Below are positions 33,214 to 63,810 of a DNA stretch of 64,000 nt, piece by piece. The translations under genes and the position numbers were made by a program. The stretch's first letter is position 1. Each line of letters begins with the position of its first letter. The notes under the pieces are model-generated. The model saw only the letters and a list, made by a program, of their open reading frames with translations. It did no database searches and had not been told where the DNA came from. Source of the DNA: Minisyncoccota bacterium (GTDB lineage Bacteria > Patescibacteriota > Minisyncoccia > Minisyncoccales > JAQTVQ01). Where the stretch lies: NCBI GenBank assembly GCA_041657385.1, contig JBBABZ010000003.1:8820-72819 (forward strand), read 5' to 3'.

Positions 33214-33252
33214 AATAAAAATTTAAAATTAATAATTAGAAATTCACAAAAA

Positions 33253-43190: not shown

Positions 43191-43311
43191 ATTCCTTTTA
43201 AGAATAAAAAATTAATTTGGCTTGGTGAAAATTTGGAGGGAAAAAATCGTCTTTCGTTTTCAATAAAAACATAATCGGACTTCCATATCGTCGGCCAAAA
43301 ACCTATTATTC

Positions 43312-43368
43312 CATTGCAAAAACCGTGGTCGCTGTCGTCTAAAAAACACGAGTTTATCTCTATGAGCG
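43312..43368. repeat. inverted repeat arm upstream of recombinase-1 start; partner of 41735..41791
   Basis: Exact reverse complement of 41735..41791. Explains spurious ORF 43187..43468. Confidence 0.85.
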
Positions 43369-43466
43369 ATTTATATGAAAAAGTTCGGACTTTCTTCCTT
43401 AACGGGGAGGACTGAAAAGCTGTCTTTTTTCTGTTGTATCTTTTTTGGTTAAAAGGCGCAAATCCC

Positions 43467-43602
43467 ACCCCGACTATTGCTCGTCAGCCCGGGTTTAGCC
43501 TTAAACCCAGTCTTCCTCGCAGACCGCGGCCCTGCTCGGGCAGGTCCGCTCGGATTGGGCCGCCAGCCAACGCATTTTAGCCGCAGGTGGGGGTAAAAAG
43601 GG
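43467..43602. repeat. ~133-bp inverted repeat (left copy) flanking the 17-kb cargo; partner at 60889..61021
   Basis: Reverse complement ~90% identical to 60889..61021. A diverged direct copy lies at ~62786..62930. Confidence 0.8.
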
Positions 43603-43763
43603 GGCTAAAATATAATATAAATCGAAGCCGATAGGCTTCGCCAAAAAATTGAAATAAAGTCGAAAAAGAGCTATCTTGAATAAAAATATAGCTTATTTAT
43701 CTTTGATTAAATTAGCCTAAAAATCAGAAAGGAGCGGCGTTGATGATTTAACAAAACAAAAAC

Positions 43764-45215: not shown

Positions 45216-45218
45216 AAT

Positions 45219-46499: not shown

Positions 46500-46517
46500 T
46501 TTTAAAAAAGAGTAATT

Positions 46518-48410: not shown

Positions 48411-48411
48411 T

Positions 48412-49608
48412 ATGGATAAGAAGAACAAAACTAACTGGCAAATAAAAAAACTTGGCGAGGTTTGTGATTTTGAGGGCGGTTCGCAACCGCCTAAAGTTAA
48501 TTTTATTCACGAACCAAGAAAAGGTTATGTGCGCTTTTTACAAATAAGAGATTTTGGAAGCGATAAACACATTACATATATCCCAGACTCGAAGAAAAAT
48601 AGACACTGCACAGAGGATGATATTTTACTTGGTAGATACGGAGCTTCCGTTGGAAAAATATTGATCAATAAAAAGGGAGCATATAATGTAGCTGTAATGA
48701 AAACATTGCCCAAATACGATCTTTTAGATAAAAAGTATTTCTATTTTTATTTAATTTCAGATGAGTTTCAAAAGCGTTTAAGCAAGGTGGCGGCTAGGTC
48801 AGCACAAGCAGGATTTAGTAAAGATGATATTTATGACTTTCCAGTTGTAACGCCGCCCCTCCCTGAACAACGCCGTATTGTGAAAATTTTGGATGAGGTT
48901 TTCGAGAAGACGGCGAAGGCGAAAGAAAATGCGCAAAAAAATCTGCAAAATGCCAAAGAGCTTTTTGAATCGTATTTGCAGAGTGTTTTTGCTCCTCCTT
49001 CGCTAAAGTTAAGAGCGGACAAGGAACCATCGGGAACGAATTGGAAGGAAAAAAAATTGGGAGAAATCGCATCTTTTTCGCAGGGAATACAAGTTGGGTT
49101 AGAAAAACATTTGACGGAGCCAAAAAAAGATTATGTTAGATTTATCAGGATTGTCGATTACACTCAGGACACAGAAGATATCAGATATATTCCAAATCCT
49201 GGAGATAAATATTTTGTTAATGAGAATGATATCGTAATGGTCCGGTATGGCACACCTGGTTTAATCGGGAGAGGAAAAGCGGGTGTAATTGCCAATAATC
49301 TATTCAAGATAACAATAGATAAAAATTATTTGTTGAACGATTATTTATGTTTTTACCTATCTCAAAAAAATATACAAATTTATTTAAGTACCCGAGGTTC
49401 TGCTACTATGCCTGCATTAAATTTTGGGCAGCTTAAAACAGTAGTTATCAATTTTCCATCATTATCCGAGCAAAAAGCGATTGTTGCCAAACTTGATGCA
49501 CTTTCTACCGAAACTAAAAAATTGGAGGCGATTTATAAACAAAAATTAGCGGATTTAGATGAGCTGAAAAAGTCAGTTCTTAAACGTGCCTTTATTGGTG
49601 ATTTATAA
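48412..49608 (+). CDS. hsdS: type I restriction-modification system specificity subunit (HsdS)
   Basis: Two target-recognition domains separated by conserved coiled-coil regions, repeated at the C-terminus (LDEVFEKTAKAKENAQKNLQNAKELFESYLQ). ATG 48412 abuts the OLD gene stop. Confidence 0.85.
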   Translation: MDKKNKTNWQIKKLGEVCDFEGGSQPPKVNFIHEPRKGYVRFLQIRDFGSDKHITYIPDSKKNRHCTEDDILLGRYGASVGKILINKKGAYNVAVMKTLPKYDLLDKKYFYFYLISDEFQKRLSKVAARSAQAGFSKDDIYDFPVVTPPLPEQRRIVKILDEVFEKTAKAKENAQKNLQNAKELFESYLQSVFAPPSLKLRADKEPSGTNWKEKKLGEIASFSQGIQVGLEKHLTEPKKDYVRFIRIVDYTQDTEDIRYIPNPGDKYFVNENDIVMVRYGTPGLIGRGKAGVIANNLFKITIDKNYLLNDYLCFYLSQKNIQIYLSTRGSATMPALNFGQLKTVVINFPSLSEQKAIVAKLDALSTETKKLEAIYKQKLADLDELKKSVLKRAFIGDL

Positions 49609-49620
49609 TAAACTACATTT

Positions 49621-52011: not shown

Positions 52012-52128
52012 AGAAATATTATTGGGATAGTTCCTTTAAGGCAATATCCGAAGTAGGGATTTAAAAAGTAGTCTTCGACAAATCTTCTAAAGGTTTCAAA
52101 AAATAATGATTTATTTAATAAGCAAAAC

Positions 52129-52965
52129 ATGGAATTAAGAGACAGGATGCAAGAATTTAATCAACGCTGGAATGTTGAAAATAATGAATCGTATGGTGAG
52201 AGTTTTGCGAAATTTAAGATTCGCATTCTTAATATCTTAAAAAATATAGATAACCAAGTTACGGAAGGCAGCGTAACTTTATTTTGCCAATTGTATGGCA
52301 TACCAGAAAGTTGGGGATCTTATTCAGGGAGACGCAGATTGAGTGCGAACATTATCAATAGGATTAATGGTGAGAACAATGAAGTGGAGTTTTACAGGTT
52401 GCTAGAGGTTATTTTTTCTTTAGATATCCGTAGCCTCGATGGATATGGCGGATGGGAAGAATATAATAAGCGAAGCATCTATAAGGAAGTATGCCAAGCC
52501 ATTGGATTTTCAGATGTGAACCTTGCCACAACCATGACAGAAAAAGGGGAAATAATTTTTTATCCTAAGGGAGAAGAATTGTTAGATAACGAGCTTGTCA
52601 ATTTTGTTTTAAGCTTTTTATCGGTGGAGAGTAACAAACATTTTGAAGAAGCCCTTGGTTTTTATGGCGCCAAAAAATGGGTTAAATGTGCCGAGAGCTT
52701 ACGCCGTTCCCTTGAACAATATTTGCGAAAAAAGTTCAATAATAATATCGGCCTCAAGACGAATATCGTTGAAATCGGGAAAAAGTTAAAGAACCAAAAT
52801 TCGCCAGCGCAGATTAGAAGTATTGTTTCTATAATCTTTGGCCATCTTGATCAGTTTTTTAACGATAATAGCAAACACAATGATGGCGAGTTGGAAGAAT
52901 CTGATGCTGAATTTTTGATTTACCAAACAGCATTACTTATGCGTTATATCGAGAAATATCTCTAA
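52129..52965 (+). CDS. hypothetical protein
   Basis: 278 aa, alpha-helical, no motif recognised. Confidence 0.5.
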   Translation: MELRDRMQEFNQRWNVENNESYGESFAKFKIRILNILKNIDNQVTEGSVTLFCQLYGIPESWGSYSGRRRLSANIINRINGENNEVEFYRLLEVIFSLDIRSLDGYGGWEEYNKRSIYKEVCQAIGFSDVNLATTMTEKGEIIFYPKGEELLDNELVNFVLSFLSVESNKHFEEALGFYGAKKWVKCAESLRRSLEQYLRKKFNNNIGLKTNIVEIGKKLKNQNSPAQIRSIVSIIFGHLDQFFNDNSKHNDGELEESDAEFLIYQTALLMRYIEKYL

Positions 52966-52987
52966 AATCTTAACAGGAACAAATTAC

Positions 52988-53485
52988 GTGAATTTTTTAG
53001 CCGAAGATCTATTAAAAATTAAAACATTGGATCACTCTAAAATTCAAGCGTGGATCAAGCGGTATTTTTATGATTGTGGCTACTATTCCCGAACGGAAAA
53101 GGAAGTTTGGCGGGATAGAAAAGGCCGGATCGATGTGTTCGCCCAAAAGGGGAGCTATACGGTCGGGATCGAAGTCGATCACAGCTCGATCCGGCTGAAC
53201 TCAATTGAAAAGTTGAACGCACTTAATCCGTCTTTGGCGGTTTTTGTTTTAAAGGGGAAAGTTTTCAATTGGGAAAAAACTTATTCTCGTTTCAAATTTT
53301 TAAAGGTGAAATCTTTGATAATCCATTTGCAGACGAAAAGGTACAAGTGGGTCTGTCCCCAAGAGAAAAATTCTTGTAAAATAGACGAAAGTGTGGATAT
53401 TTACAATAAAAAAATACTTTCTAAAATGTGCCAAAATACAGATTCAGAAAATTTGAAAAAAGCCAAACGCCCCTCAAATTCATAA
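52988..53485 (+). CDS. hypothetical protein, possible restriction-endonuclease-like fold
   Basis: 165 aa. GRIDVF...YTVGIEVD could be a D...E-x-D/K nuclease core. Weak. Confidence 0.3.
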   Translation: MNFLAEDLLKIKTLDHSKIQAWIKRYFYDCGYYSRTEKEVWRDRKGRIDVFAQKGSYTVGIEVDHSSIRLNSIEKLNALNPSLAVFVLKGKVFNWEKTYSRFKFLKVKSLIIHLQTKRYKWVCPQEKNSCKIDESVDIYNKKILSKMCQNTDSENLKKAKRPSNS

Positions 53486-54282
53486 TCGGGCCTAAAGATA
53501 TTTTAATACTCCAAGACCTTGCCGCCTATAAGTTTTTAGATTCAAAACATATATTAGCCTTGCATCCGGAAATAAAGGAAAGAAGCCTTCAATCAAGGCT
53601 TCATTTGCTTTTCCACGGAGGATTGGTGGAGCGGCCGCCAAGCCAATTCACATACTTCCAAAAGGCGGCCCATATCGTTTACAGCCTGACCAAGAAAGGA
53701 GCGGAGCTGGTTTCTCAAGATATGGGAGTTTCCGATCAAGTAAAACAGCCCAAAAATATGGGCGTGTCTTTTTTACAGCACTCGCTGATGATCTCCAATT
53801 TCAAAACAATTCTGGAATTGGCCTTAAAAGAAAACGGCCAGTCAAAACTTTCTTTTTGGAGCGAGCCGAAAACCATTGATGTGATCTATTCCGGCGGCGA
53901 AAGGCTGCCAATCGCACCGGACGCGTTTTTCACGATAGAGGATAAGGATTATTTGATGCATTTTTTCCTTGAAGTGGACCGCTCAACGATGGCGCTTGAG
54001 CGGATGGTAAAGAAATTCAAAGGATACTGGGATTGGCGCGCCGAAGGCGGACACAAGCGAAAGCTGAAGATTTCCAATTTCCGCGTGCTGACGGTGGCCT
54101 TAACCGAAGACCGCAAAGAGAATATAAGAAAGATCGCTAGAAAAGCGGATGACAATCAAACCGGCAGCGAAATGTTCTGGTTTGCCTGTGAAAAAGCGTA
54201 TAATTTAGAAAACACCGGAAAGATATTGGATCCCATTTGGAAAACTTCGAAAAATGAAAATTTACACCATATATTGGAATAA
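53428..54282 (+). CDS. replication-relaxation family protein (plasmid/ICE-associated)
   Basis: PIAPDAFFTIEDKDYLMHFFLEVDRSTM matches the Replic_Relax core. The true start is probably internal (N-terminal region overlaps the previous ORF). Confidence 0.55.
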   Translation: MPKYRFRKFEKSQTPLKFIIGPKDILILQDLAAYKFLDSKHILALHPEIKERSLQSRLHLLFHGGLVERPPSQFTYFQKAAHIVYSLTKKGAELVSQDMGVSDQVKQPKNMGVSFLQHSLMISNFKTILELALKENGQSKLSFWSEPKTIDVIYSGGERLPIAPDAFFTIEDKDYLMHFFLEVDRSTMALERMVKKFKGYWDWRAEGGHKRKLKISNFRVLTVALTEDRKENIRKIARKADDNQTGSEMFWFACEKAYNLENTGKILDPIWKTSKNENLHHILE

Positions 54283-54330
54283 AGGTCGGCCAGGTTTTAA
54301 ATGTAATATTTTAACGCAACAATAAAACTT

Positions 54331-54837
54331 ATGTTTGCAAGAATAAAACAGGAAGCGATCTTGGAGAGTTGGGGAACTTTGGTCGGATCTGTCAGCGGCC
54401 GGAGCGAGGAATTTTTTAGAAAGACGGGAGAAGCCATAAATAGCTATAAAGTGCCATTTCTTGTAATGGACTATAAGGAAGTTGCTCCCAGTTTTGAAAA
54501 GGGGCTTTTCGGCAAAAAGCGTCCGGCCATCATCGTAACAAACAGAAAAATGCCTGAATATAAGATGTTTATCATGTGCAGGGATTATGGAACGCAACTT
54601 TCGATTTCTTGGTATCTTCTTTCCGCCAGCCCGTTGATGTACGCGATAACGACATTTGCGCAGACCTTAGCGCAAACAAAGAAGCCCATGGATGTATTTC
54701 AACTTGAAGAGCTTTCGTGCTGGACGGCAACCGTCCATCACGCGACAACCGCCGCCTCAAAAGAGATCGCCGAATCGGTTGGCTTCGATTTCTCCAAGGT
54801 TGATCAAAAATCAAGAGGTTTTTTAAATATTTCTTAA
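54331..54837 (+). CDS. hypothetical protein upstream of TraD/VirD4-like ATPase
   Basis: 168 aa. Its stop abuts the ATPase start. Confidence 0.5.
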   Translation: MFARIKQEAILESWGTLVGSVSGRSEEFFRKTGEAINSYKVPFLVMDYKEVAPSFEKGLFGKKRPAIIVTNRKMPEYKMFIMCRDYGTQLSISWYLLSASPLMYAITTFAQTLAQTKKPMDVFQLEELSCWTATVHHATTAASKEIAESVGFDFSKVDQKSRGFLNIS

Positions 54838-54838
54838 A

Positions 54839-56383
54839 ATGATTCCAGGCTGGTTGCGCCAATTCTTGGAAAAAGCCAAAGCGGTTTTGAAAAAGATTTG
54901 GGCCATCTTGAATAAGGATATTTTCGTCAAACCGCGTCCGTCAAAACCGGATGCGGCGAATGAAGTGCCTCCAGAAAGGAGGCTGGATTTGGGCTACGCT
55001 TGGGGCGTTGACGAGAAAACGAATATGGAAGGCTTTACCCAGAGAAAAGCGATCTATACGGATTATCGAAAGACGCATTTTTATATAATTGGCGCAACCG
55101 GCACCGGCAAGACCAAGTTTTTGGAGTCGCTCATTATCCAGGACCTCGTGAATGGCGAAGGCTTTGCGGTTATAGATCCGCACGGCGATCTGACCGAGAA
55201 TATCAAGGGTTGGCTGTATCACAAAACGCAAAAAGATTTTCAAAAGGATATTATTTTGATCGAGCCGACTAATCTTGAAAAGACCGTTAGTTTCAACCCC
55301 TTGGAGCCGATACCGGGCATCTCAAGCTCGGAGATCGCCAGCGAGCTGGTGGAAGTGTTTAGAAAGATTTGGATCGATTCCTGGGGCGAGCGGATGGCCG
55401 ATATAATGCGCAACTCTTTGATCGCGCTGGTGGAAAACGGCCTGACCTTGGCCGAATTGCCGCCGTTTTTGACAAATACCGCTTTCCGTAGAAAAGTGAT
55501 GCGTAATGTGAAGAATCCAACCTGCTTGGAACGGCTCGAATATTTCAATTCTTTGCCGCCTTCCACTTGGCGGGAATGGATCGAATCGACCTTGAATAAA
55601 GTAGATGCTTTTCTTTCGGATGCGAGGATCCGTGATATATTCTCTTCGCCTAAAAGTTCTTTCAACCTTCGGGAAATTATGGACAGCGGGAAAATCCTGC
55701 TGGTCAATCTAAGCCGGGGAAGACTGAAAGGCGGAGCCAATCTTTTGGGAGCGCTTCTGGTCAGCAAAATCCAGATGGCCGCTTTTTCCCGTGCCGATAT
55801 GCCGCAAACCAGCCGAAAGCAGTTTTATCTTTACATCGACGAGTTTCAAAATTTTGCCACGGAAAGTTTTGTCGAGATGTTAAGCGAGGCGCGGAAATAC
55901 AAACTTTCCCTGATAATGGCGCACCAGAATTTAAGCCAGCTCCCAAGAACTTTGAAGGATTCTATCCTTGCCAATTGCGGCATTCAAGCCTGTTTTCGCG
56001 TTAATCGTGAAGATGCCCAATTGCTGGCCAAGGAGCTGTTAAGCCCGCTTTACCAGCACCAGCCCGGCTGGGAGCTGAACATCCAGCGCTTGCAGGAACT
56101 GCCGCCGCGGACCTGCTTTGTGGCCAACCGGATGGAAGGCGGGATAATTTATATCTCCACGCCGGACGTGCCTAATCCTTGGGAGCTTATCTGGGGCGAA
56201 GAAGACGGCGAATGGAAGACTTATGACGAGGAAACTTTTCGCAGATTTATGGATGTAATGGGTTACGGTGCCTCTTATTTGCGGGATAGGGCCGAAGTAG
56301 AGGAGGAATATCTGCAAAGGTATACCGAGCTCGTTAAAAGCAAGGAAGGAGAGAATTTCAGGGAAAGAAAAGGCCAAATTTGA
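54839..56383 (+). CDS. TraD/TraG/VirD4-family coupling-protein-like P-loop ATPase (island copy)
   Basis: Walker A GATGTGKT, IDPHGD and Walker B FYLYIDEFQNFAT, the same signature as 9175..11037. Confidence 0.7.
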   Translation: MIPGWLRQFLEKAKAVLKKIWAILNKDIFVKPRPSKPDAANEVPPERRLDLGYAWGVDEKTNMEGFTQRKAIYTDYRKTHFYIIGATGTGKTKFLESLIIQDLVNGEGFAVIDPHGDLTENIKGWLYHKTQKDFQKDIILIEPTNLEKTVSFNPLEPIPGISSSEIASELVEVFRKIWIDSWGERMADIMRNSLIALVENGLTLAELPPFLTNTAFRRKVMRNVKNPTCLERLEYFNSLPPSTWREWIESTLNKVDAFLSDARIRDIFSSPKSSFNLREIMDSGKILLVNLSRGRLKGGANLLGALLVSKIQMAAFSRADMPQTSRKQFYLYIDEFQNFATESFVEMLSEARKYKLSLIMAHQNLSQLPRTLKDSILANCGIQACFRVNREDAQLLAKELLSPLYQHQPGWELNIQRLQELPPRTCFVANRMEGGIIYISTPDVPNPWELIWGEEDGEWKTYDEETFRRFMDVMGYGASYLRDRAEVEEEYLQRYTELVKSKEGENFRERKGQI

Positions 56384-56430
56384 AGAAATCCTTTACTTCT
56401 TTACTGTTTGTATAGTAAGAATAAGGCAAT

Positions 56431-57180
56431 ATGGATTTTATAGCTTCAAACTTAATAACTCCGGCCATAATTATTTCTGCGGCCGCCTATCTTACAAGAT
56501 TTTACGGTAAGGTTATCTCAGATCGAAAACCATTTTCTGACGATCGAGATTGGGAGATCGAATTTTCCGGAATTCTTTTTTTTATAACCATGCTCCTCTC
56601 TGTTGTGCCTGGGATTTTTAGCGCTTTAAAAATCGGTTGGCTTTTCCCTTTTGAGTGCCCTATAATTATGATTGTCTTTTTTTCGACGCTTTGGTTATCG
56701 ATTAGTATAGATATTCTTATTGATAAAAACACATATAAAAAGATATACGATATCAAAATTCCATTTATCCAAAATTTATTTAAATCAGCTAAAGATGACA
56801 GGACAAGATTAAAAGAACCCAACGCAAAATTTTGGACCATTAACGAATATGTGATACTTTGGTTTTTCCCATTCTTATATACATATATTTTGACCATCGA
56901 ATACCAGTCTCAAAATATAGAACGGTTATTCTCCGCAGGGCTCCTCGTTTTTTTAAATTCTATTTTAATAGCACTATTCTACTCACTAAGGAGAAATCGG
57001 CCACGGAAAGCTGATATAATTTTTATAAATAGAGAAAGGTCTCTTTTTGATGTGCTGTTATTAAAGGTAAATAATGATAATGTTCGCATTAAGCAGAAAG
57101 AGAAGGTTTCTATTATTAATAAAGACCAAATTGAGAGGATAGAATTACTTCCGATAAAAGATAATGCTAAAAAATATTAG
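56431..57180 (+). CDS. hypothetical polytopic membrane protein
   Basis: 249 aa, at least 5 hydrophobic helices. Confidence 0.5.
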   Translation: MDFIASNLITPAIIISAAAYLTRFYGKVISDRKPFSDDRDWEIEFSGILFFITMLLSVVPGIFSALKIGWLFPFECPIIMIVFFSTLWLSISIDILIDKNTYKKIYDIKIPFIQNLFKSAKDDRTRLKEPNAKFWTINEYVILWFFPFLYTYILTIEYQSQNIERLFSAGLLVFLNSILIALFYSLRRNRPRKADIIFINRERSLFDVLLLKVNNDNVRIKQKEKVSIINKDQIERIELLPIKDNAKKY

Positions 57181-57201
57181 AATTAATTAAAAAAACGATA
57201 A

Positions 57202-57984
57202 ATGCCAGATAAGATTATCATTTACCCGGAATTTACTATAGAAGAAATGGAGAGCGCTTTGTCTCCTTTTATGTCGAGTAGAACCCATAGCAGAAATATA
57301 GCTTACAGTTTGCAATTTTTGAAATATTGCGAAGAATTGATAAAACAAAAAATTGAGGTTAAATTTGCGATAGATTCTATCTTCTCAAAAGCGATGACCG
57401 TTATAGCATCTTCTGTCATAGAATGTTTGATATTTGATTCTTTAAAGAAAAATGATTGTTGCTTAGAGAAATGGAAAGACTTCCAACCTCCAACAGAGTT
57501 ACCGATTTATAAAGATGATCCAAACAGAAGGGTGAGGATAGTTTATCAAGAAAAAATAGAAGAGCCTCTAGACAAGTTTGTTCCTTTCGGAATGGCTATA
57601 AACTTAGCTATTGAAAATCAAATTATTGATAGTGGGATTAGATCATCGCTCGACAAAGTAAAAAGCGCAAGAGATTTGATACATATCAGAGGCGGCGAGG
57701 ATTTGGATATGAAAAAAATTAATTTAGATTTTTATTTTAAAATTACGCGGCCTACCTTAATAAAGATAATGGAGAAATTAAAACTAAAAAAAGCTATAGA
57801 ACTATTTGAATTGAGCAAAGCATCAGAATCAAAACCAAAAGAGATTGTTAAAAAACCATATTATAAGGGAGCTTCTATGGTTTGGTCTGTATCTAATAAG
57901 AAATGGTATTTAGTTAAAAAAGAAGGGGGGTTGGTTGATTTTCTTGGGGAGGAGAAAGATATTGAATGGCGAATTGTAAAATAA
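57202..57984 (+). CDS. hypothetical protein
   Basis: 260 aa, no motif recognised. Confidence 0.5.
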   Translation: MPDKIIIYPEFTIEEMESALSPFMSSRTHSRNIAYSLQFLKYCEELIKQKIEVKFAIDSIFSKAMTVIASSVIECLIFDSLKKNDCCLEKWKDFQPPTELPIYKDDPNRRVRIVYQEKIEEPLDKFVPFGMAINLAIENQIIDSGIRSSLDKVKSARDLIHIRGGEDLDMKKINLDFYFKITRPTLIKIMEKLKLKKAIELFELSKASESKPKEIVKKPYYKGASMVWSVSNKKWYLVKKEGGLVDFLGEEKDIEWRIVK

Positions 57985-58003
57985 ATATAAGATCAAAAAT
58001 AAA

Positions 58004-58816
58004 ATGCAAATTGATTCACCCGATATCAACGCGTTAATAAAGGATATTTTGCCGATCGAGGCTTCTTTCACCGGAGATCCCGGCCGTCCGGAGTCGGAAC
58101 AGGCTGTGGCGCAAAGCATAGAACGGTGGAGATTAAGCTATTTAAAAGAGCTGGAGGCGAACAATTCCCTTGATGATATCAAAAAATTCAAAGTTTTTAT
58201 CACCAGCCTATTATTAAGGGCCAACAGAGGCGAGGTCGGCGGGAGATTGTATAGGGCTCTTAACGATAGAATAAACGATTTCAAAGATCTGGATAGGAAA
58301 ACCGTCGCAGCCGTTTTAAAAGATGCTGGTTACCGTTTCCAACTTCAAGGCATAGAGACGGTGCTGGATGCCAAAAAATTATTGCTTGATAGGTATCAAG
58401 GCAGCTGGGATGGATATTTTAAAGAAGCAAAAGAAAATTACAGAAATAATTTTCCAGATGACGATTTTTTAAAGATAAAGGGGGTGGGCTTCAAGGTAAG
58501 AGATCTGGCCTCGAGCTGTTTTTTAAAAGAATATTCCGCTAATGATTTTCATGTAGTGGATGTTCTAGTAAGGACAGGTTTGATTTTATACGGATACGGC
58601 AATTTTAATTTTGGAACTAATCCTAATAATAACGAAAACTATTTATTTTTAAGGAATTTGATAATCAATATCTCCGAGCAAACACCTTATTCCCCAGGAG
58701 AAATTGATAGAATTTTTTGGCATTTCGGTCGGGCAGTTTGCAAAAGTAAGCCGTTGTGTGAAAAATGCTTCATTAAAAATATATGTTTGACCTATAGAAA
58801 TATAAAAGAGATTTGA
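58004..58816 (+). CDS. HhH-GPD superfamily DNA glycosylase with C-terminal 4-Cys (FeS-type) cluster, endonuclease III/MutY-like
   Basis: HhH-GPD signature LKIKGVGFKVRDLASSCFL...FHVVDVLVRTG (Lys + Asp). C-terminal C-x5-C-x2-C-x5-C (CKSKPLCEKCFIKNIC). Confidence 0.65.
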   Translation: MQIDSPDINALIKDILPIEASFTGDPGRPESEQAVAQSIERWRLSYLKELEANNSLDDIKKFKVFITSLLLRANRGEVGGRLYRALNDRINDFKDLDRKTVAAVLKDAGYRFQLQGIETVLDAKKLLLDRYQGSWDGYFKEAKENYRNNFPDDDFLKIKGVGFKVRDLASSCFLKEYSANDFHVVDVLVRTGLILYGYGNFNFGTNPNNNENYLFLRNLIINISEQTPYSPGEIDRIFWHFGRAVCKSKPLCEKCFIKNICLTYRNIKEI

Positions 58817-58842
58817 TAGGAAACTAAAAATTACAATATTTT

Positions 58843-59364
58843 ATGGCAAAACTTTTTACGGATGGAAATAAACACAACGAACTTGCTGATGAAGTTATCA
58901 ATGCATCTACGAAAGCTCTTTCATATTTTTTTGAAGAGTGCCAGGAAGCGATTAGAACGAAAGATATAAGCGCAGTTGAGCTGTATCTTTTTTATCTTTG
59001 CCAGACGTGGTTTTTGTTAAAAAGTCATATTTTAGAGATGGGCGCAGACCAAAACGACCAAATGGTATTATTCGGAACAATAATTCATAAATTTTGCAAC
59101 AGAGCTGCCTCCTTAACATTTTCTAAGAACTTAGCGGCGGAAAATAATAATTTAGATTTTTGGGGTCAGGAATTAAAGAAAAATTTGATTTTTTATCAAC
59201 AAATAGCAAATGAGGGGGGAGTGGCTGAATTAATGCAGGTTGCTTATAATAAGATTATTAAGTCTGATGATCAAGATTTTCAATCGGCAACAGGCAAAGC
59301 GTTTTTAGCATCCGCATACATTGCCTCTGTTCATATCGAAGAAAAATTAGAAGAACTAATGTAG
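58843..59364 (+). CDS. hypothetical protein
   Basis: 173 aa, helical. Confidence 0.45.
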   Translation: MAKLFTDGNKHNELADEVINASTKALSYFFEECQEAIRTKDISAVELYLFYLCQTWFLLKSHILEMGADQNDQMVLFGTIIHKFCNRAASLTFSKNLAAENNNLDFWGQELKKNLIFYQQIANEGGVAELMQVAYNKIIKSDDQDFQSATGKAFLASAYIASVHIEEKLEELM

Positions 59365-59390
59365 AGAAGCATTTTTTATCTATAAAAATT

Positions 59391-59654
59391 ATGGCTAAAA
59401 AGACTCAAAAACTTTCTAATCTTAGTCCATTCGCATTCCAGAGGGAGCTTTATGCATCTGATGGTATAAACATTATAAGGACAATTCCGACTAAGGGCGG
59501 AAAGGCTCCCTTCATCGCTTATCTTAAAATTGGTTATGGGAAAGAGATTGAAGTCGATTATTCGATTGACGATGTCGCCCAAGTTTTATCTTCCGGATAT
59601 GAAATTACGAAAGAAGATTATGACAAATCTGACGGCGAAGTTAGGAATAGATAG
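59391..59654 (+). CDS. hypothetical protein
   Basis: 87 aa. Confidence 0.4.
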   Translation: MAKKTQKLSNLSPFAFQRELYASDGINIIRTIPTKGGKAPFIAYLKIGYGKEIEVDYSIDDVAQVLSSGYEITKEDYDKSDGEVRNR

Positions 59655-59700
59655 TTTCCCGCGGTATGATAACCTTTATTTTTTAAAAGAAAGTTAAGCT

Positions 59701-60237
59701 ATGGATTTTCCTAAGGAGCTACGACCAGCAAATAAAATGGAACTTCGGCTTTCGGATGGCATAGTAGTAGCCTTGCCAGTGGCTTATCCAAAGTTTTTAG
59801 CTTGGAAGGGACCATCTGTTGTTTTTGATTATGGAAACAAGCCCATAATTAATTACAAAGAGGAAGCGTGTTTTGCTGAGCTTGCAGTTCTTCGCCTTTT
59901 ACTTGATCAGGGATGGGACGGAGTGTGGGTTGAAAGTTACGGGGGCACTCATTATTTGCGAAGTATGCCTCAAGCATGGAATTTGCAATCGGAACATATA
60001 TTGATCCCGCAAGACAAAGAATGTTTACTGCAAAAGATATGGAAAGTAGCCAAGACGACGGCTTGTTTCGATGTTTTTGCATGGCACGATGACCAGTTAG
60101 TATTTTTTGAGGCTAAAAGGACAGGAAAAGATAAGCTTACTTCTCCTCAGATAAGATTTATAGAAGGAGCCTTGGCGTGTGGGATATCGCCGGAATCGCT
60201 CATTATTGTTGAGTGGGAAGATATTTCTTCGAGTTAA
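59701..60237 (+). CDS. VRR-NUC / PD-(D/E)xK-type nuclease domain protein
   Basis: FDVFAWHDDQLVFFEAKRTGKDKLTSPQIRFIEGALACG matches the VRR-NUC core (D ... E-A-K ... Q). Confidence 0.55.
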   Translation: MDFPKELRPANKMELRLSDGIVVALPVAYPKFLAWKGPSVVFDYGNKPIINYKEEACFAELAVLRLLLDQGWDGVWVESYGGTHYLRSMPQAWNLQSEHILIPQDKECLLQKIWKVAKTTACFDVFAWHDDQLVFFEAKRTGKDKLTSPQIRFIEGALACGISPESLIIVEWEDISSS

Positions 60238-60239
60238 AT

Positions 60240-60780
60240 TTCTCCTTATAGGCTATTCGGGCGGTCGTCGTTGGTTTTAAGTAATCAGCCGCCGCCGGTA
60301 GGCCTTGCTCTCTTTGACGATAGGAAAAGTGTGTTTTAAAGGTCCCGCCAAAGCGGGATTTTTAAAAGCCGGACGGCGGCGGCTGATTAGTATCCTGAGC
60401 TGGAAATTTTCGGAAAGGCTTTTGCGATAGAGTAAAAGACTTTCGGGAAAAGCGGACCCGCAAAAAACTATAGGAACCGGCCGCCGGAAAATCAAATGTC
60501 TCCGCGTCAGGTGTCATTTGATAGCGAAGCGGTTTATGGCGGCGGTTCCGTTAAATGGTTTTTGGCGGGGGAGCGGTTTCCGGCGGCCCCTGCCTGCTTT
60601 CTTGGAGTCTTGTCACTGGCCTTGGTCAGTTCATCGCGTGATTATGGCTCTATCCATCACATACCTCTGTCCAGGCGCTGTTTTGGCTTGGAGTTACCTC
60701 TTACTTAGGCATTGCTTCCAAAACAGCGCCGTTGACTACGGCAGAACCGTCCGGCGTTCGGATTGGGCCGCTTTCGATAG
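60240..60780. other. GC-rich noncoding region with multiple long perfect stem-loops (candidate structured RNA or oriT/ori/att region)
   Basis: 17-bp stem TAATCAGCCGCCGCCGG ... CCGGCGGCGGCTGATTA; GGAACCGGCCGCC ... GGCGGCGGTTCC enclosing ATCAAATG...CATTTGAT; 13-bp stem GGCGCTGTTTTGG ... CCAAAACAGCGCC. No long ORF. Confidence 0.5.
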
Positions 60781-60782
60781 CT

Positions 60783-60872
60783 AAAAAGTCTGCGTTCTTC
60801 ATTTCTCTGCGTGTTACCTTTACTCTGCGTTCTTAGAACGCAGAGTCAACGCAGAGAGAACGCAGACTTTTT
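60783..60872. repeat. nested palindrome (AAAAAGTCTGCGTTC ... GAACGCAGACTTTTT with inner CTCTGCGTTC-TTA-GAACGCAGAG)
   Basis: Perfect 15-bp outer and 10-bp inner inverted repeats centred at 60833-60835. CTCTGCG/CGCAGAG occurs four times. Confidence 0.8.
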
Positions 60873-60888
60873 AGCGAGCCAACGCATA

Positions 60889-61021
60889 CCTTTTTACCCC
60901 CACCTGCGGCTAAAATGCGTTGGCTACGGCCCAATCCGAGCGGACCTGCCCGAGCAGGGCCGCGGTCTGCGAGGAGGACTGGGTTTTAGCAAAAATACAG
61001 GCTGACGAGCAATAGTCGGGG
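60889..61021. repeat. ~133-bp inverted repeat (right copy), partner of 43467..43602; overlaps 3' extension of recombinase 2
   Basis: ~90% identical to the reverse complement of 43467..43602. Confidence 0.8.
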
Positions 61022-62529
61022 ATGGCAAGACTAAGAATTATTGATAAAATAGGTCCTAGCTTCGTTGTAGATATACTCATTTCAGAAAACGCCAATTTTT
61101 TGGCCGACAATGCCCACGGTTTTTGAAGCGAAATAGACGGTTTTTGGCCGACAATGCGGAAGTCCGAGCCGATTTTTTTGAGGAAGTTTTGTTTTTCCTC
61201 CAAATTTTCACTTTCCGCGATGGAATTGGCTTGAAATGCCTCTAAAATCCATTCTTTGAAGAGTCCGAGCCGAACATTTCCCTTCCGTCCAAAATTTTCC
61301 AGCTCCTCGTTAATTTCAACCTTGCGGTTGAGAAGTTTTTGTTTTTTGGCGGCGTATTCTTCGCGGCTGATCGTTTGGTCTATGTAAGCGTCCAAAAGTC
61401 GGTTTAATTTCGCGTTCACTGTTTTTAGTTCCGTTTTTAAATTTTGGGCGGAATCGTTGGCGGTAGTGGAAAATTTCTTGCGATCATTTTCCCATCGTTT
61501 GAGAAAGTTATTTTTCCATTCCGCGTTTAAAGAAACTTTTTGAAAAAGTTTATTCAGCTGTTCCGATAGATTTTTTTCGCCGATATATTTTTGGTGGCAA
61601 ACGCGGTCTTTCTTGGTACAGCGGTAATAGGTGTATGATTTGCCGGAAGGTTTGACCCTTGTTTCGGCGGTGATCTGGCGGCCGCACTCGCCGCATTTGA
61701 ACACGCCGCGGAAAGCGTAATGTTTCAAACTCTTTGCCTGCGGTTTGCCTCGTTCTCGCATAACGCGTTGAACTTTTTCAAAAAGTTGTTTGGAAATGAT
61801 CGGCTCGTGATTGCCTTGATATATTTCGCCTTTGAATTTAAACAAGCCGTAATAAAACGGATTTTTTAGCATTGTTTGGATTTTGGAAACGGCGATGGCT
61901 TTTCCTTTTCTTTGTCCGGCTAAGCCAATGGAAAAAGAAAGTTTTTGCAAATCTTCCAAAGTATATTTTCCCGTGGCGTAAGCTTCAAAAACTTTCTTGA
62001 CCGCTTCGGCGCGCTGTGTGTCTTTGACAATGGTGTGATGGCGCAGTTCGTTTAGATAGCCGATAGGGGCGTAGGCCGGATAATCGCCGTTTCGCAGTTT
62101 TTGGCGCAATCCGCGCTTGATGTTCTCGCTCAAATTGTCGATGTAATACTTTGACTGGCCGAAAGCGATATTTAACATAAACTTTCCCTGCGGGGTTGCG
62201 TCAAACCAAAAGGTGGGGAATTTTAAGCCGCCAATCTTGCCAGTGTCCACGAGATAAATAATCTTTCCGCCGTCAACGCTATTACGCGCCAGCCTGTCCG
62301 GGTGCCAGCTTAAAATTCCAAAAGACCCGCCCGCTTCTATTTTGGCGATCATTTGGTTGAATATGGGACGGCCTGGAACCTTGGCGGTTTTCGATTCAAT
62401 AAACTCATCGGCGATTTCCAATCCTTCTTTTAAAGCAAATTCTTTTAGCTCCGTTATCTGGGCTTCAATGCTTAGGACTTGGCGTTCTTCTTCGTCCGTG
62501 GATTTTCGAGCGTATAAAAAATATTTCAT
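60910..62529 (-). CDS. large serine recombinase (second copy) with C-terminal read-through extension into the inverted-repeat element
   Basis: MKYFLYARKSTDEEERQVLSIEAQ start chosen at 62529 (the ORF-track N-terminal extension is probably spurious). ~80% identical to recombinase 1. Its C-terminus runs ~55 aa past the point where recombinase 1 stops. Confidence 0.85.
   Translation of the reverse strand: MKYFLYARKSTDEEERQVLSIEAQITELKEFALKEGLEIADEFIESKTAKVPGRPIFNQMIAKIEAGGSFGILSWHPDRLARNSVDGGKIIYLVDTGKIGGLKFPTFWFDATPQGKFMLNIAFGQSKYYIDNLSENIKRGLRQKLRNGDYPAYAPIGYLNELRHHTIVKDTQRAEAVKKVFEAYATGKYTLEDLQKLSFSIGLAGQRKGKAIAVSKIQTMLKNPFYYGLFKFKGEIYQGNHEPIISKQLFEKVQRVMRERGKPQAKSLKHYAFRGVFKCGECGRQITAETRVKPSGKSYTYYRCTKKDRVCHQKYIGEKNLSEQLNKLFQKVSLNAEWKNNFLKRWENDRKKFSTTANDSAQNLKTELKTVNAKLNRLLDAYIDQTISREEYAAKKQKLLNRKVEINEELENFGRKGNVRLGLFKEWILEAFQANSIAESENLEEKQNFLKKIGSDFRIVGQKPSISLQKPWALSAKKLAFSEMSISTTKLGPILSIILSLAIPDYCSSACIFAKTQSSSQTAALLGQVRSDWAVANAF
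61075..61165. repeat. inverted repeat arm (~91 bp, 1 mismatch) inside recombinase-2 3' coding region; partner at 62612..62703
   Basis: ctcatttcagaaaacgccaattttttggccgacaatgcccacggtttttgaagcg... is the reverse complement of 62612..62703. Contains an internal direct repeat tttttggccgacaatgc. Confidence 0.85.
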
Positions 62530-62611
62530 ATTCCTTTTAAGGATAAAAATAATTTGAATTTGTGAAAATTTGGAGGAAAAAAATCGGCTTTCGTTTTCGA
62601 TTAACATTTTC

Positions 62612-62703
62612 GGACTTCCACATTGTCGGCCAAAAACCGTCTATTTCGCTTCAAAAACCGTGGGCATTGTCGGCCAAAAAATTGGCGTTTTCTGAAATGA
62701 GCT
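62612..62703. repeat. inverted repeat arm upstream of recombinase-2 start; partner of 61075..61165
   Basis: Reverse complement of 61075..61165. Explains spurious ORF 62562..62750, which encodes the recombinase C-terminal peptide. Confidence 0.85.
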
Positions 62704-63021
62704 GTTTGTATGAAAAAGTTCGGACTTTCTTCCTTGAAGAGAACAGCTAAAAACGGTCAAACTGCTCCGGTTTCTGTCTGGTATTTTTGTTGTATCTTTT
62801 TTGAGTAAAAGGCGCAACTTCTTGCCCCCGACTAAGCTCACTTCGCCCTGTTTTGGAGTACCAATCCAGAGCTTCGCTCGCAGACCGGCAACCGGCTTGG
62901 GAATCGGGCTTGGCACAACGCATTTTAGCCGAAAAGATGGGGGGGAGGGGAGAATTTAAAAATATATCGAAGCCGTAGGCTTCGCGTTAAATTTGAAAAA
63001 ACACTATAAAAAAGGTAAATT

Positions 63022-63810
63022 ATGGTTATGAACTACTGGACAAAACTAAGCATTGATTACGCAAGCCAAAAGAGCTACTTGGACGATTTGTTCCAAGTTT
63101 ATCCCACTATCCCAGAGGGAATACGCGATATAGACAAAAACCTTTGGGGGAACATCGAAAAGGCGTTTGAAAAAAAGGATAATGTAGAGTTATTGAACAA
63201 CCTTTTAAAGTTGGATTTATTTCCTATCAAGGATTCTTATGTCGCATATTTAAAAAGGGATAAATCTTCATTAGAAAGAAACCCTGCAACAGTAGATCGT
63301 CTTTGCGGGCGAATATACGAGATCGGGCTAGATAATCTTTTTTCGCAATGCTCGGAGCCTAAAGAAACGAATAGGCAAATCGGGCCATTGTTTAGAAGAT
63401 GGCTAAACAAGAAAAGTTTAGGGATTCAGGCAGTTAAACTAGCCGAATTTAGCAAAACAACTGGCAATGCTATTTTAGACGGCGGCGATGCCGAGATGAT
63501 GCATTTTGCAAAAGAACATTTAAATTACAAGCGAAATAAGGGGCTTGATTTTATTGGTCGATTCAATGGCAAATATGTGATAGGCGAGGCGAAATTTTTA
63601 ACCGATTTTGGGGGTCATCAAAACGCTCAATTTAATGACGCAATTTCGACCCTCAAAACTAAAGGTGTAAAAGCGATACCAGTTGCGATTCTTGACGGAG
63701 TGCTCTACATAGAGGGTAAGAATAAAATGTATAAGGAGATAACAGCTAAGCTAAAGAATGAAAATATTATGAGTAGCTTGGTGCTAAGAGAATTTTTGTA
63801 TCAAATATAA
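63022..63810 (+). CDS. putative type II restriction endonuclease (PD-(D/E)xK candidate)
   Basis: LDFIGRFNGKYVIGEAKFLTDFGG gives a D ... E-A-K core. Lies immediately upstream of a DNA methyltransferase gene. Confidence 0.4.
   Translation: MVMNYWTKLSIDYASQKSYLDDLFQVYPTIPEGIRDIDKNLWGNIEKAFEKKDNVELLNNLLKLDLFPIKDSYVAYLKRDKSSLERNPATVDRLCGRIYEIGLDNLFSQCSEPKETNRQIGPLFRRWLNKKSLGIQAVKLAEFSKTTGNAILDGGDAEMMHFAKEHLNYKRNKGLDFIGRFNGKYVIGEAKFLTDFGGHQNAQFNDAISTLKTKGVKAIPVAILDGVLYIEGKNKMYKEITAKLKNENIMSSLVLREFLYQI

Follow-up and report, generated by a model that had tools for sequence, protein, structure and literature searches.

Why should a gene for a site-specific recombinase lack a stop codon at the point where a related copy of the same gene has one, and why should it lie between two long inverted copies of one sequence? 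These questions are raised by the second of two recombinase genes in the window, that is, the whole stretch of 64,000 nucleotides analyzed here, which belongs to a Candidatus Paceibacterota (CPR) chromosome. The comparison of sequences described below indicates that recombinase 2 is very probably the integrase module of a mobile defense/mobilization island that inserts into tRNA 3′ ends in CPR bacteria. In all likelihood, the region is one module in a tandem array of integrative mobilizable islands that large serine recombinases (LSRs) have inserted at the 3′ end of a tRNA-Gly gene.

Two Large Serine Recombinases and a Read-Through Tail

The two genes are as follows:

41730 to 43190, minus strand: recombinase 1, predicted LSR of 486 amino acids with the Pfam domains Resolvase, Recombinase and Zn_ribbon_recom
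60910 to 62529, minus strand: recombinase 2, predicted LSR of 539 amino acids

Both products are, to judge from their domains, LSRs of a family that is widespread in CPR bacteria. They have an N-terminal resolvase-type catalytic domain (PF00239, E = 1e-19) as well as a recombinase domain and a zinc ribbon scoring above the cut-offs (PF07508 and PF13408). Y6, R8, and S10 of the YARKST motif are invariant in 30 homologues, and residues 212-396 align to the structure of the A118/LI integrase (4KIS, E = 1e-6). In a protein search, 7,980 of the 8,000 candidates scored were homologues with E ≤ 1e-20. The best scores against the NCBIfam equivalogs XisF, CcrA, CcrB, and CcrC were 99-108 bits, against cut-offs of 375-900. 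Residues ~375-440 look rich in heptads by eye and are thereby a candidate for the directionality-governing coiled-coil insertion of the zinc-ribbon domain. Two other assignments were rejected. IS607-type serine transposons have a small serine recombinase with an N-terminal DNA-binding domain and no terminal repeats, whereas here the catalytic domain comes first and the DNA-binding domains follow toward the C-terminus. A phage integrase family is also unsuitable, since just two true family members occur among viral contigs.

The two genes are 83% identical over 1650 nt and their products 86% identical, in keeping with an earlier estimate of ~80%. The open reading frame (ORF) of recombinase 2 starts with ATG at 62529 and ends with a stop codon at 60910-60912. 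Residues 1-485 are homologous to recombinase 1, and residues 486-539 are a read-through into two neighboring modules, P-beta and X′: the extra 54 codons (previously counted as ~55) correspond to 60913-61075, beyond the end point of recombinase 1, and the first 17 residues of this tail (ISTTKLGPILSIILSLA) are the antisense translation of the linker and P-beta at 61026-61075. P0127, an independently assembled relative of 580 amino acids that is 94% identical across 60239-62988, shows the same read-through, and the P-beta flank is read through also by a further relative, P0130. Because the read-through is repeated in an independent assembly, a sequencing or assembly error whose correction would restore a stop near 61070 is an unlikely cause. 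Recombinase 2 is indeed a second copy with its own arms, and it is probably functional.

The Recombinase 1 Locus at tRNA-Gly

How does recombinase 1 acquire its stop codon? Its downstream and upstream surroundings consist of the following elements:

41667 to 41739, plus strand: tRNA-Gly(CCC), found by ARAGORN and Rfam
41735 to 41828, unstranded: arm L1, putative P′ half beside the tRNA, encoding the last ~31 codons of recombinase 1
43275 to 43601, unstranded: predicted intact attP-type copy upstream of recombinase 1 (R1, 43275-43368; P, 43369 to about 43395; linker; X1, 43465-43601)

The TGA of recombinase 1 (41730-41732) falls within the acceptor stem of tRNA-Gly; the gene looks "normal" because the abutting tRNA supplies this stop after two codons. 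Arm L1 opens with CGCTCA, the final bases of tRNA-Gly, and forms with 43275-43368 a 94-nt repeat with a 94% match, the six mismatches being confined to its inner 37 nt. In the tRNA, 10 nt separate the motif GTCCGAC from the identity block, a spacing of B type; upstream of recombinase 1, the motif GTCCGAA is located 15 nt from the block, 5 nt more than in the tRNA. The T-arm and the acceptor 3′ strand of tRNA-Gly(CCC) are thus recognizable as the B half-site of an occupied site, the putative attL of the array. A second assembly of the same organism agrees with this architecture. The regions upstream of the two recombinases had been regarded as homologous, and their homology reaches farther than was claimed, to about 43658 and 63001.

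The Arms of Recombinase 2 and the Adjoining Modules

Around recombinase 2, the corresponding elements are more complex:

60889 to 61025, unstranded: X′ module, inverted copy of X1 (92% over 138 nt)
61026 to 61075, unstranded: linker and putative P-type half-site P-beta, with a GTCCTAG motif 16 nt from the identity block; end of cargo 1
61076 to 61167, unstranded: arm L2, putative P′ half and 3′ end of recombinase 2, with two copies of TTTTTGGCCGACAATGC
61192 to 61211, unstranded: inner 20-nt perfect repeat pairing with 62562 to 62581, a degenerate inward continuation of the long repeat
62562 to 62581, unstranded: partner of the inner 20-nt repeat, between arm R2 and the start codon
62610 to 62958, unstranded: predicted intact attP-type copy upstream of recombinase 2 (R2, 62610-62701; P-alpha, 62702 to about 62728; linker; X2, about 62818-62958)
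62968 to 62984, unstranded: two-way terminator-like hairpin (CGAAGCCGTAGGCTTCG) at the close of the conserved unit, with a homologue in unit 1 at 43623-43640

A repeat search gave arms of 92 nt (61076-61167 and 62610-62701) that are 99% complementary, the sole mismatch being C versus T at position 61157; the near-perfect inverted repeat with one mismatch had been described correctly, with coordinates 1-2 nt off. The CTCA at 61076-61079 is the junction core of arm L2. Past small indels the long repeat extends inward to the pair at 61192-61211 and 62562-62581, and inner perfect pairs of 15-24 nt are present in many relatives. The segment 62562-62581 may overlap a possible -35 element of the recombinase promoter. 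Promoter and terminator scans were not decisive. The sequence TTTTTGGCCGACAATGC occurs twice in arm L2 (61097-61113 and 61141-61157, spaced 44 nt) and likewise twice in the other arm. The direct repeat in each arm is therefore real, while its proposed role as a recombinase subsite does not extend to the family, as it is found only in the recombinase 2 sub-lineage.

What is the inverted-repeat element into which the gene runs? The preliminary description placed a 133-bp element at 60889-61021 that had inserted into, or recombined with, the gene end. The element exists and spans 60889-61025, and its partner is distant, at 43465-43601 upstream of recombinase 1. It is the P-side end of the neighboring cargo segment, a terminal module joined to the cassette at a recombination core rather than an insertion into the gene; recombination of the gene end with a neighboring repeat element is the source of the extended C-terminus. 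The P and linker of this split copy (61026-61075) differ from those of the intact copy (43369-43464), while arms and X match at 92-94%, so that the two long repeats of unit 1 are mosaic. Neither a scan of the whole window with Rfam at the gathering threshold nor E-value scans of 60200-63100 and 43150-43800 gave a match for arms or X. X was also considered as a structured RNA and rejected: one strand of X1 folded with z = -2.7, but X2 did not, and the covariation term of a six-variant alignment was positive, which is unfavorable.

Geometry of the Probable Attachment Sites

At 31 of 34 loci, the distance between the core and a T-loop-like motif is exactly 5 nt greater in the flank carried by the element than in the tRNA, and the same offset is found in all junctions of the window, as read on one half-site of each site. 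In serine integrases, the ZD motif occupies positions 16-24 in attP and 11-19 in attB (Rutherford et al. 2013, PMC3783163). Since the +5-nt offset of the flank equals this published difference, the upstream arm together with its flank would be an intact attP, and the tRNA together with the downstream arm would be an attL. Each arm continues across a 4-6-nt core into what can be recognized as a tRNA or P-type half-site. Motif symmetry was used to type the arm-side half-site as P′ or B′, but no clear mirror counterpart of the P motif was seen. As had been supposed, the arms consist of recombinase-related DNA; instead of a private pair of inversion sites, they appear to be the integrase-proximal (P′) halves of two attachment-type junctions.

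According to the canonical rule, a serine integrase recombines only attP with attB, or attL with attR with the aid of a directionality factor (PMC3783163). No directionality factor was identified here. This rule predicts no insertion beside a resident element, and growth of an array would thus need relaxed selectivity, composite transfer or homologous recombination.

Conservation in the Family

Is this anatomy peculiar to the window? Repeats of 90-175 nt, mostly 95-100% identical, bracket the gene in nearly all of 80 related loci with enough flank. At 48 of the 67 loci with downstream flank the recombinase ORF overlaps a tRNA 3′ end in the antisense direction, the target tRNAs across related loci being those for Gly, Gln, Asn, Ser, Ala, and Glu, and the start of the arms differs with the tRNA type, being made up of the terminal bases of the target. 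The absent stop had been taken for a peculiarity of copy 2, yet no stop is found inside the repeat at any of 55 family loci: in all of them it lies beyond the arm end, after a tail of 1-75 codons, and the read-through ORFs stop in whatever adjoins the repeat, usually an antisense tRNA 3′ end.

Short blocks of 4-8 identical nucleotides (GAGC, GAGCG, CCGCCA, and others), within which the crossover would take place, recur in attL, attR, and the intact copy. In the locus L082, perfect repeats of the arm (93 nt) and of X (246 nt) abut with a 4-nt overlap, GAGC, and this core is present in the attL, the attR and the intact copy of that locus; 62699-62944 of the window matches each of the two 246-nt copies at 99%. 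The same layout is seen in L092, with a 236-nt perfect repeat and the core GAGCG. The far end of L092 was considered as a clean attB and rejected, as its flank looks like an older P-like remnant rather than native sequence. The arms evolve in concert within elements: their identity has a median of 99.3% within an element, compared with 80.6% to the arm of the nearest relative, and it is higher within than between elements in 41 of 42 cases. A metagenome scan with the 26-nt 3′ end of tRNA-Gly gave unoccupied sites in other organisms (12 tRNA-Gly genes with the identical 26-mer and unrelated downstream DNA), but neither an empty site of this strain nor a circle junction.

Cargo and Mobility

The DNA joined to the cassettes has the following main features:

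43369 to 61075, unstranded: cargo segment 1 (Pfam), 17.7 kb, bounded by inverted P-X modules
53428 to 54282: predicted Replic_Relax relaxase in cargo 1 (Pfam)
54839 to 56383: predicted TraG/VirD4-like coupling protein in cargo 1 (Pfam TraG/TrwB/T4SS-DNA_transf)
63022 to 63810, plus strand: predicted Tsp45I-family type II restriction endonuclease (PF06300, E = 1e-123), the first gene of cargo 2

Besides these genes, cargo 1 contains, according to Pfam, a type I restriction-modification system (hsdM, hsdS, hsdR) with DUF2130, an OLD-like ATPase and hypothetical genes. A site-specific integrase, a relaxase and a coupling protein are thus combined in one integrated segment, as in an integrative mobilizable element. 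No VirB4 or other secretion-apparatus domain was found among the scanned cargo proteins, several cargo ORFs having no match, which suggests that the island is mobilizable rather than self-transmissible.

Recombinase 2 and the adjacent relaxase/TraG cargo have evidently been transferred together horizontally: recombinase 2, X′ and this cargo are 90-94% identical to those of a relative, compared with only ~76% for core genes. The right part of cargo 1 (52988-58838) is 90-93% identical to L081, which carries the same relaxase and coupling-protein genes. The contig of a relative has three tandem recombinase/cargo units at the same tRNA-Gly, beside DivIC-LepA. An earlier model, in which each cargo was owned by the tRNA-proximal recombinase, was weakened by the finding that cargo 1 travels with recombinase 2, and we adopted a symmetric description of the cassettes instead.

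A Model of the Array

The anatomy is conserved through the family, with its 5-bp geometry, its common cores and its open-ended ORF, and can be outlined as follows. The recombinase cassette of ~1.6 kb has inverted copies of one sequence, the arms, at both ends. An arm opens with the last 4-8 bases of the tRNA, an identity block that would hold the crossover, and goes on with the last ~30-45 codons of the recombinase. Outside each core there is either the tRNA T-arm (B-type, making a probable attL) or a mimic of the T-loop 5 bp farther out (P-type, making an attP-type junction). The order of the array is tRNA-Gly, core, (arm-Rec1-arm), core, (P-X1-cargo 1-X′-P), core, (arm-Rec2-arm), core, (P-X2-cargo 2...). 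Because the recombinase ORF reaches the core without meeting a stop, the C-terminus depends on the DNA joined there, which is two codons of tRNA antisense for recombinase 1 and 54 codons of P/X′ for recombinase 2. The recombinase itself presumably cuts at these cores. An occupied site could be reused, and arrays could grow, because only the tRNA-side half-site would be read stringently.

What is the second attP for? We tentatively suggest that this intact copy may allow a cassette or an island to be joined in either polarity. A wider reading, which we regard as doubtful, is that of a modular system in which recombinase segments end in P′ arms and cargo segments in P-X, so that every joint would be a complete attP-like site. 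If it were true, recombinase and cargo cassettes could be combined freely and in either orientation, and the recombinase, largely indifferent to the half-site that is not of tRNA origin, would invert, swap and stack cassettes at tRNA genes. Defense islands would be built and reshuffled in this way, the perfect identity of the arms would be maintained by frequent recombination between the two copies, and the chromosome would occasionally be inverted between isoacceptor tRNA genes, for which L045, described below, might be an example. This would be a new mode of LSR action, outside the attP × attB and attL × attR rule.

Other Explanations of the Inverted Arms

Could the recombinase instead flip the 1.6-kb cassette in which it is encoded, using the two arms as sites, in the way that Hin inverts the H segment? 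Such a self-inverting switch would toggle the C-terminal tail or the outward transcription into neighboring restriction/cargo genes, and could coexist with insertion at tRNA genes as the purpose of the second attP, but we consider it unlikely. The gene and its likely promoter are enclosed by near-perfect inverted arms that are homogenized within elements; a site-specific crossover with a fixed core cannot, however, homogenize arms by itself. Both polarities relative to the tRNA are found among relatives. The tRNA is at the upstream arm in L015, L025, L032 (which has a P-type flank at its 3′ end), and L079, and a complete tRNA-Ser lies on both sides of L045, facing inward, which looks like an inversion made by the recombinase. 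The polarity is nevertheless heavily skewed (48 versus 5 loci), and the 82 loci include no pair of opposite polarity at the same locus, the five of opposite polarity being distant loci. In the flipped state, the ORF of each unit would continue in frame into a similar tail of 15 amino acids, (D/C)LYEKVRTFFL.... This tail coincides with P half-site DNA, so that its conservation needs no protein function, and tails are not conserved in relatives: P0127 shifts frame and P0130 stops early. An exact look-up among 15 billion sequences did not find the predicted flipped proteins of recombinases 1 and 2. Contigs break at the cassette in 46 of 80 cases, as would be expected of a switch, but any repeat longer than the assembler k-mer would break them. 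A flipped cassette, like a circle junction or the empty site of this strain, was not observed directly.

A decidedly improbable alternative is an autonomous insertion sequence, a minimal transposon of 1.6-1.9 kb with an LSR transposase, the arms of which would be terminal inverted repeats and the islands unrelated neighbors. It would explain why homology across genomes is limited to ~1.8 kb, beginning ~320 nt before the ATG and reaching 80 nt beyond the end of the gene, and why there are many stand-alone contigs of 1.5-2 kb; furthermore, an ORF running into a terminal repeat is a typical trait of insertion sequences. On the other hand, tRNA 3′ ends and P-type junctions account for almost all locations of the unit and random sites for none, target-site duplications were not found, and the repeat runs on into P and X with no break where the element should end (in L082, 339 nt at 100%). 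The apparent co-transfer of recombinase 2 with its adjacent cargo also speaks against independent neighbors, and serine recombinases acting on inverted sites bring about inversion, not excision.

It is very improbable that the arms work as RNA, with the upstream arm in the 5′ leader pairing with the mRNA 3′ end or with tRNA read-through transcripts to control recombinase expression, in which case the repeat would not be a DNA site. As this explanation would have it, the upstream arm precedes the start codon by 80-170 nt, and GC-rich hairpins and terminator-like elements are present in the arms. Yet the arms are 99-100% identical without G-U-type or compensatory drift, their ends match tRNA termini and the 5-bp att geometry, the X module has no covariation, and a likely promoter between arm and ATG would put the arm outside the transcript. 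Finally, that an assembler made the absent stop or the perfect repeat is scarcely credible: metagenome assemblies can mis-join repeats longer than the k-mer, but the same architecture is found in dozens of independent assemblies, including the complete genome L027 (CP174360.1), besides the relative with the same read-through and the second assembly that supports unit 1.

Comparison with Known Systems

The architecture that we ascribe to insertion at tRNA genes can be compared with several known systems. The phage-type large serine integrases (A118/LI, Bxb1, phiC31) have the same resolvase catalytic, recombinase, and zinc ribbon domains, a distal motif whose distance from the crossover is likewise 5 bp greater in the half-site of the element than in that of the host, and partners with a short identity core, here the putative crossover site, in common. 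In contrast to them, the host target here is a tRNA 3′ end rather than a protein-coding gene, the integrase ORF crosses the crossover point, the far side of the integrase gene carries a second attP-type copy, intact and inverted, repeat lengths are 90-340 nt instead of about 50 bp, and the tandem arrays imply reactions outside attP × attB.

In ICESt3/CIME accretion and in the composite SCCmec islands formed by the CcrAB LSRs, successive elements occupy a single attachment site head to tail, and a direct repeat of the att core stands between neighbors. The array resembles them in having several elements at one site and a cargo including a relaxase and a coupling protein; it differs in that recombinase and cargo segments alternate, and every internal junction is fully attP-like and of alternating orientation. 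The archaeal integrases of SSV1 type are tyrosine recombinases with attP inside int, and integration splits and inactivates int. The likeness is that a recombination site overlaps the integrase ORF, that integration alters the gene and that tRNA genes are the targets, but here the enzyme is left intact, as nothing but its presumably dispensable extreme C-terminus is altered. Integrase-driven inversions between tRNA genes are described for Thermococcales (PMC5495485), and the two inward-facing tRNA-Ser genes of L045 are reminiscent of them.

A serine recombinase gene between inverted repeats is also known from Hin/Gin, small invertases with a C-terminal helix-turn-helix, 26-bp sites and an enhancer. 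The present proteins are, however, LSRs of 486-539 amino acids with repeats of 92-340 nt ending in tRNA-derived cores, and inversion polymorphism was not detected in the look-up of flipped proteins or among the 82 loci. Another parallel is the yeast 2-micron plasmid with FLP/FRT, a eukaryotic plasmid whose tyrosine recombinase serves copy-number amplification: a pair of long inverted repeats of identical sequence, each with a recombinase target inside, separates its circle into two unique segments, one of which carries the recombinase gene. A literature search, with many subscription-journal papers outside its coverage, found no description of the architecture with dual attP and open-ended ORF.

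Implications

The read-through gene and the two sets of repeats become a testable map of attachment sites for a very large uncharacterized family of serine integrases. The attP and the tRNA target of each member can be read from its genome, which is a prerequisite for testing these enzymes as genome-engineering tools. In annotation, variable C-termini (485-580 amino acids) and contig breaks at such genes are to be expected and are not errors. The duplicated, inverted, and homogenized attP and the tandem arrays point to a site selectivity unlike that of the textbook rule. For CPR bacteria, about whose mobile elements little is known, the array also shows how restriction and other defense genes reach tRNA genes and accumulate there.

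Two recombinase genes and their inverted repeats

The window comes from a CPR chromosome and carries RNase P RNA, LepA, DivIC and a tRNA-Gly; its closest protein matches are annotated as Candidatus Paceibacterota. Its two large serine recombinases, Rec1 and Rec2, share Resolvase, Recombinase and Zn_ribbon_recom domains. The recombinase matched the DNA-binding region of A118 integrase (4KIS; E = 1e-6), and it scored far under the equivalog cut-offs of XisF and CcrA/B/C, so it belongs to a distinct subfamily. Only two family members come from viral contigs. Both genes are bracketed by inverted repeats, here called arms (L1/R1 for Rec1, L2/R2 for Rec2), and accompanied by copies of a further module, X.

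Features of the two recombinase loci
41667-41739, tRNA-Gly(CCC); its acceptor stem contains the Rec1 TGA (41730-41732)
41730-43190, minus strand, Rec1, 486 aa
62529 (ATG) to 60910-60912 (stop), minus strand, Rec2, 539 aa
41735-41828 and 43275-43368, Rec1 arm pair, 94 nt, 94% identical
61076-61167 and 62610-62701, Rec2 arm pair, 92 nt, single mismatch (61157)
61192-61211 and 62562-62581, inner continuation of the Rec2 repeat, 20 nt, perfect
43465-43601, X1, upstream of Rec1
60889-61025, X', inverted copy of X1, 92% identical over 138 nt
~62818-62958, X2, upstream of Rec2 at the place equivalent to X1, a diverged homologue

The inverted repeat around Rec2 described from inspection is real, as is the 17-nt direct repeat present in two copies per arm; the latter is limited to the Rec2 lineage, other sub-lineages having different internal repeats. 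The arms of Rec1 and Rec2 are only ~77-79% identical to each other, and the Rec1 arms differ from one another at six positions, confined to the inner 37 nt, the outer 57 nt being perfect. Neither arms nor X matched Rfam, and covariation was absent from X.

We compared 80 related loci from GTDB genomes of many CPR lineages (48-84% protein identity). Nearly all with enough flank have a bracketing repeat of 90-175 nt, mostly 95-100% identical, with the upstream arm ~80-300 nt ahead of the ATG and the downstream arm spanning the final codons; many also have a short, perfect inner pair. Median arm identity is 99.3% inside an element vs 80.6% to the nearest relative's arm, which is lower than that of the ORF body (86.9%), and identity within the element exceeds that between elements in 41 of 42 cases. 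The arm repeat is thus family-wide and evolves in concert.

In L029, L030, L035, L044, L065 and L073, a hairpin with a 12-bp stem (GAAAATCCCGAA...TTCGGGATTTTC) lies within the 3' coding region, about 110-140 nt ahead of the end of the recombinase match, with compensatory changes among loci (CCCGAA/TTCGGG vs CCCGTC/GACGGG); upstream of the gene, a different hairpin is found at the mirror-image position.

Arms as probable halves of attachment sites

In 48 of the 67 loci with enough downstream flank, the recombinase ORF overlaps the 3' end of a tRNA gene (Gly, Gln, Asn, Ser, Ala or Glu) on the opposite strand. Read in the tRNA sense, both arms of an element open with the bases at which the target tRNA ends: CCACCA for tRNA-Ala, GGAGCCA for tRNA-Asn, CAGCCA for tRNA-Gln, CGCTCA for tRNA-Gly and CCGCCA for tRNA-Ser. 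The downstream arm is flanked on its outside by the T-arm of the tRNA. Beyond the upstream arm comes a run of A, then a motif resembling the T-loop (GTTCGAA, GTCCGAA or GTTCTGA); in 31 of 34 loci this motif is exactly 5 nt more distant from the arm end than the T-loop of the tRNA itself. In the LI/A118 integrase system the zinc-ribbon motif occupies positions 16-24 of attP and 11-19 of attB, being thus shifted 5 bp toward the centre in attB (Rutherford et al., 2013; PMC3783163). By this rule, the upstream flank, the core (the identity block that would hold the crossover) and the arm would together constitute attP (P-core-P'), and the tRNA, core and arm would constitute attL (B-core-P'), where P, B and P' are the element-borne, tRNA and arm-side half-sites. 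The four junctions in the window can be assigned in the same way.

Spacing of the motif from the identity block at the four junctions
tRNA-Gly / arm L1, GTCCGAC at 10 nt, B-type
43368/43369, motif at 15 nt, P-type
61075/61076, motif at 16 nt, P-type
62701/62702, motif at 17 nt with the block 2 nt shorter, P-type

The junction at 61075/61076, across which Rec2 reads, would accordingly in spacing be an attP-like joint of a P-type half-site and the Rec2 arm. The arms are thus probably halves of attachment sites, and the integrase gene would stand between two inverted attP-type copies that are kept identical.

Polarity of the cassette

In five loci (L015, L025, L032, L079 and L045) the tRNA lies at the upstream arm. 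In L032, the P-type flank, 5 nt longer, is at the 3' end of the recombinase gene. In L045 (1-2786), the cassette sits between two complete tRNA-Ser genes that face inward (gct on one side, gga on the other) and its 175-nt repeat begins within both, which looks like a recombinase-made chromosomal inversion between isoacceptor genes. Both polarities therefore arise, through integration via either attP copy or through inversion. These arrangements are also what would be seen if the cassette flips between its arms, as it might; however, the predicted flipped forms of Rec1 and Rec2 (500 aa, tail (D/C)LYEKVRTFFL...) are missing from a collection of 15 billion proteins, no syntenic pair of opposite polarity occurs among the loci, and a second assembly of the organism has unit 1 in the same state. 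Contigs break at the cassette in 46 of 80 loci, as is to be expected of repeats that exceed the assembler k-mer; this is no evidence of heterogeneity.

Reading frames open across the core

Rec2 was originally described as lacking the stop codon at the position homologous to that of Rec1. The read-through is real, but it is not peculiar to Rec2: wherever arms and an intact ORF are both present (55 of 55 loci), the ORF ends only after passing the outer limit of the arm, with tails of 1 to 75 codons that are mostly antisense tRNA ('...DSNP...'). Rec1 likewise reads out of its own arm, as its TGA inside the tRNA-Gly acceptor stem indicates, the tRNA giving the stop two codons on. A sequencing error is an unlikely source of the missing stop, since an independent assembly, 94% identical over 60239-62988, reads through too. 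The tail is not kept as protein: among relatives of Rec2, P0127 has a frame shift after 17 residues and P0130 a stop 19 residues in. Close relatives in the 90% cluster are 486, 528, 539, 565 and 580 aa long; N-terminal extensions account for the extra length of the 528- and 565-aa calls, and the 580-aa call combines such an extension with 3' read-through. The long Rec2 C-terminus is a by-product, since the ORF in every case runs across the recombination core.

Arm and X as one long repeat

On the 87-kb L081/L082 contig of a relative, three units of recombinase plus cargo follow one another at the same tRNA-Gly, beside DivIC-LepA-MurJ. Here a 93-nt arm repeat (100%) abuts, with a 4-nt overlap, a 246-nt repeat (100%) bracketing an 8.2-kb cargo. 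Compared base by base, a single unbroken copy of ~339 nt lies upstream of the recombinase, and the other is divided at the GAGC core (GCTC in tRNA sense) between attL and the far junction. L092 has the same pattern, with a perfect 236-nt repeat and a GAGCG core. It follows that cargo segment 1 terminates on its outer side (P-X) in X', whose partner X1 lies within the intact copy beside Rec1. The preliminary description was right that the '133-bp IR element' is an inverted repeat, whose partner is X1; of the two possibilities that it raised, insertion into the gene end does not hold, and recombination with the gene end does.

The array and its cargo

The array runs tRNA-Gly / core / [arm-Rec1-arm] / core / [P-X1 - cargo segment 1 - X'-P] / core / [arm-Rec2-arm] / core / [P-X2 - Tsp45I ...]. 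The arrangement is symmetric, with P' at both ends of a recombinase cassette and P-X at both ends of a cargo, and cargo can be linked to a recombinase on either side. Segment 1 encodes a type I R-M system, DUF2130, an OLD-like ATPase, a relaxase, a TraG/VirD4-like protein and hypotheticals.

Several other features were observed. In the R-M operon (43764-52011), hsdM and hsdS are separated by two additional genes, encoding the DUF2130 protein and an ATPase of the OLD family (AAA_15/TOPRIM), and the 3' part of hsdR (51248-51395) contains three tandem units of 43-54 nt encoding repeated Cys-x2-Cys...Cys-x-Cys motifs. At the end of the segment is a 650-nt GC-rich non-coding stretch (60240-60888) with a nested palindrome (60770-60885; CTGCGTT/AACGCAG heptamers, centre ~60834). 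This candidate oriT or operator adjoins the same relaxase/TraG genes in L081, with 94% conservation. The TraG/VirD4-like paralogues at 9175-11037 and 54839-56383 share an 86-nt stretch (78% identity); the former is not part of the islands, and L092 has a similar gene on its chromosome. GAAAATT-like AT-rich intergenic repeats, direct and inverted, occur at 575-632, 29188-29307 and 33110-33215.

Core genes of the window and of the L082 genome share ~76% identity. By contrast, identity reaches 94% in 60239-62988 (the Rec2 cassette, X' and the non-coding stretch) and 90-93% in the relaxase/TraG cargo, which is also collinear; this block has therefore been transferred horizontally in one piece. The homologous cargo is bordered at its other end by different recombinases in the two genomes, Rec1 here and a 46%-identical enzyme in L082.

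Concluding remarks

We found no description of this architecture in the literature searched, within the coverage limits of that search. The observation on which this analysis was based holds, and its interpretation holds in part: the arms are probably att halves and the tail is a by-product. Repeat-flanked Rec2 is probably the integrase cassette of an island that a serine integrase directs to tRNA genes. Related islands also carry defence-rich cargo; in related genomes the same tRNA-Gly is held by family members carrying AIPR, DpnI, methyltransferases and AAA_15/21. Thirteen metagenome contigs (L094-L106), which come from different organisms, match the 26-nt 3' end of this tRNA-Gly exactly; 12 are unoccupied, with unrelated DNA downstream, and in the exception (L105) a recombinase of the family, 52% identical, has the usual polarity. 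Thus the tRNA half alone of the target is conserved, and an occupied site, consisting of tRNA and arm, may for this reason be reusable.
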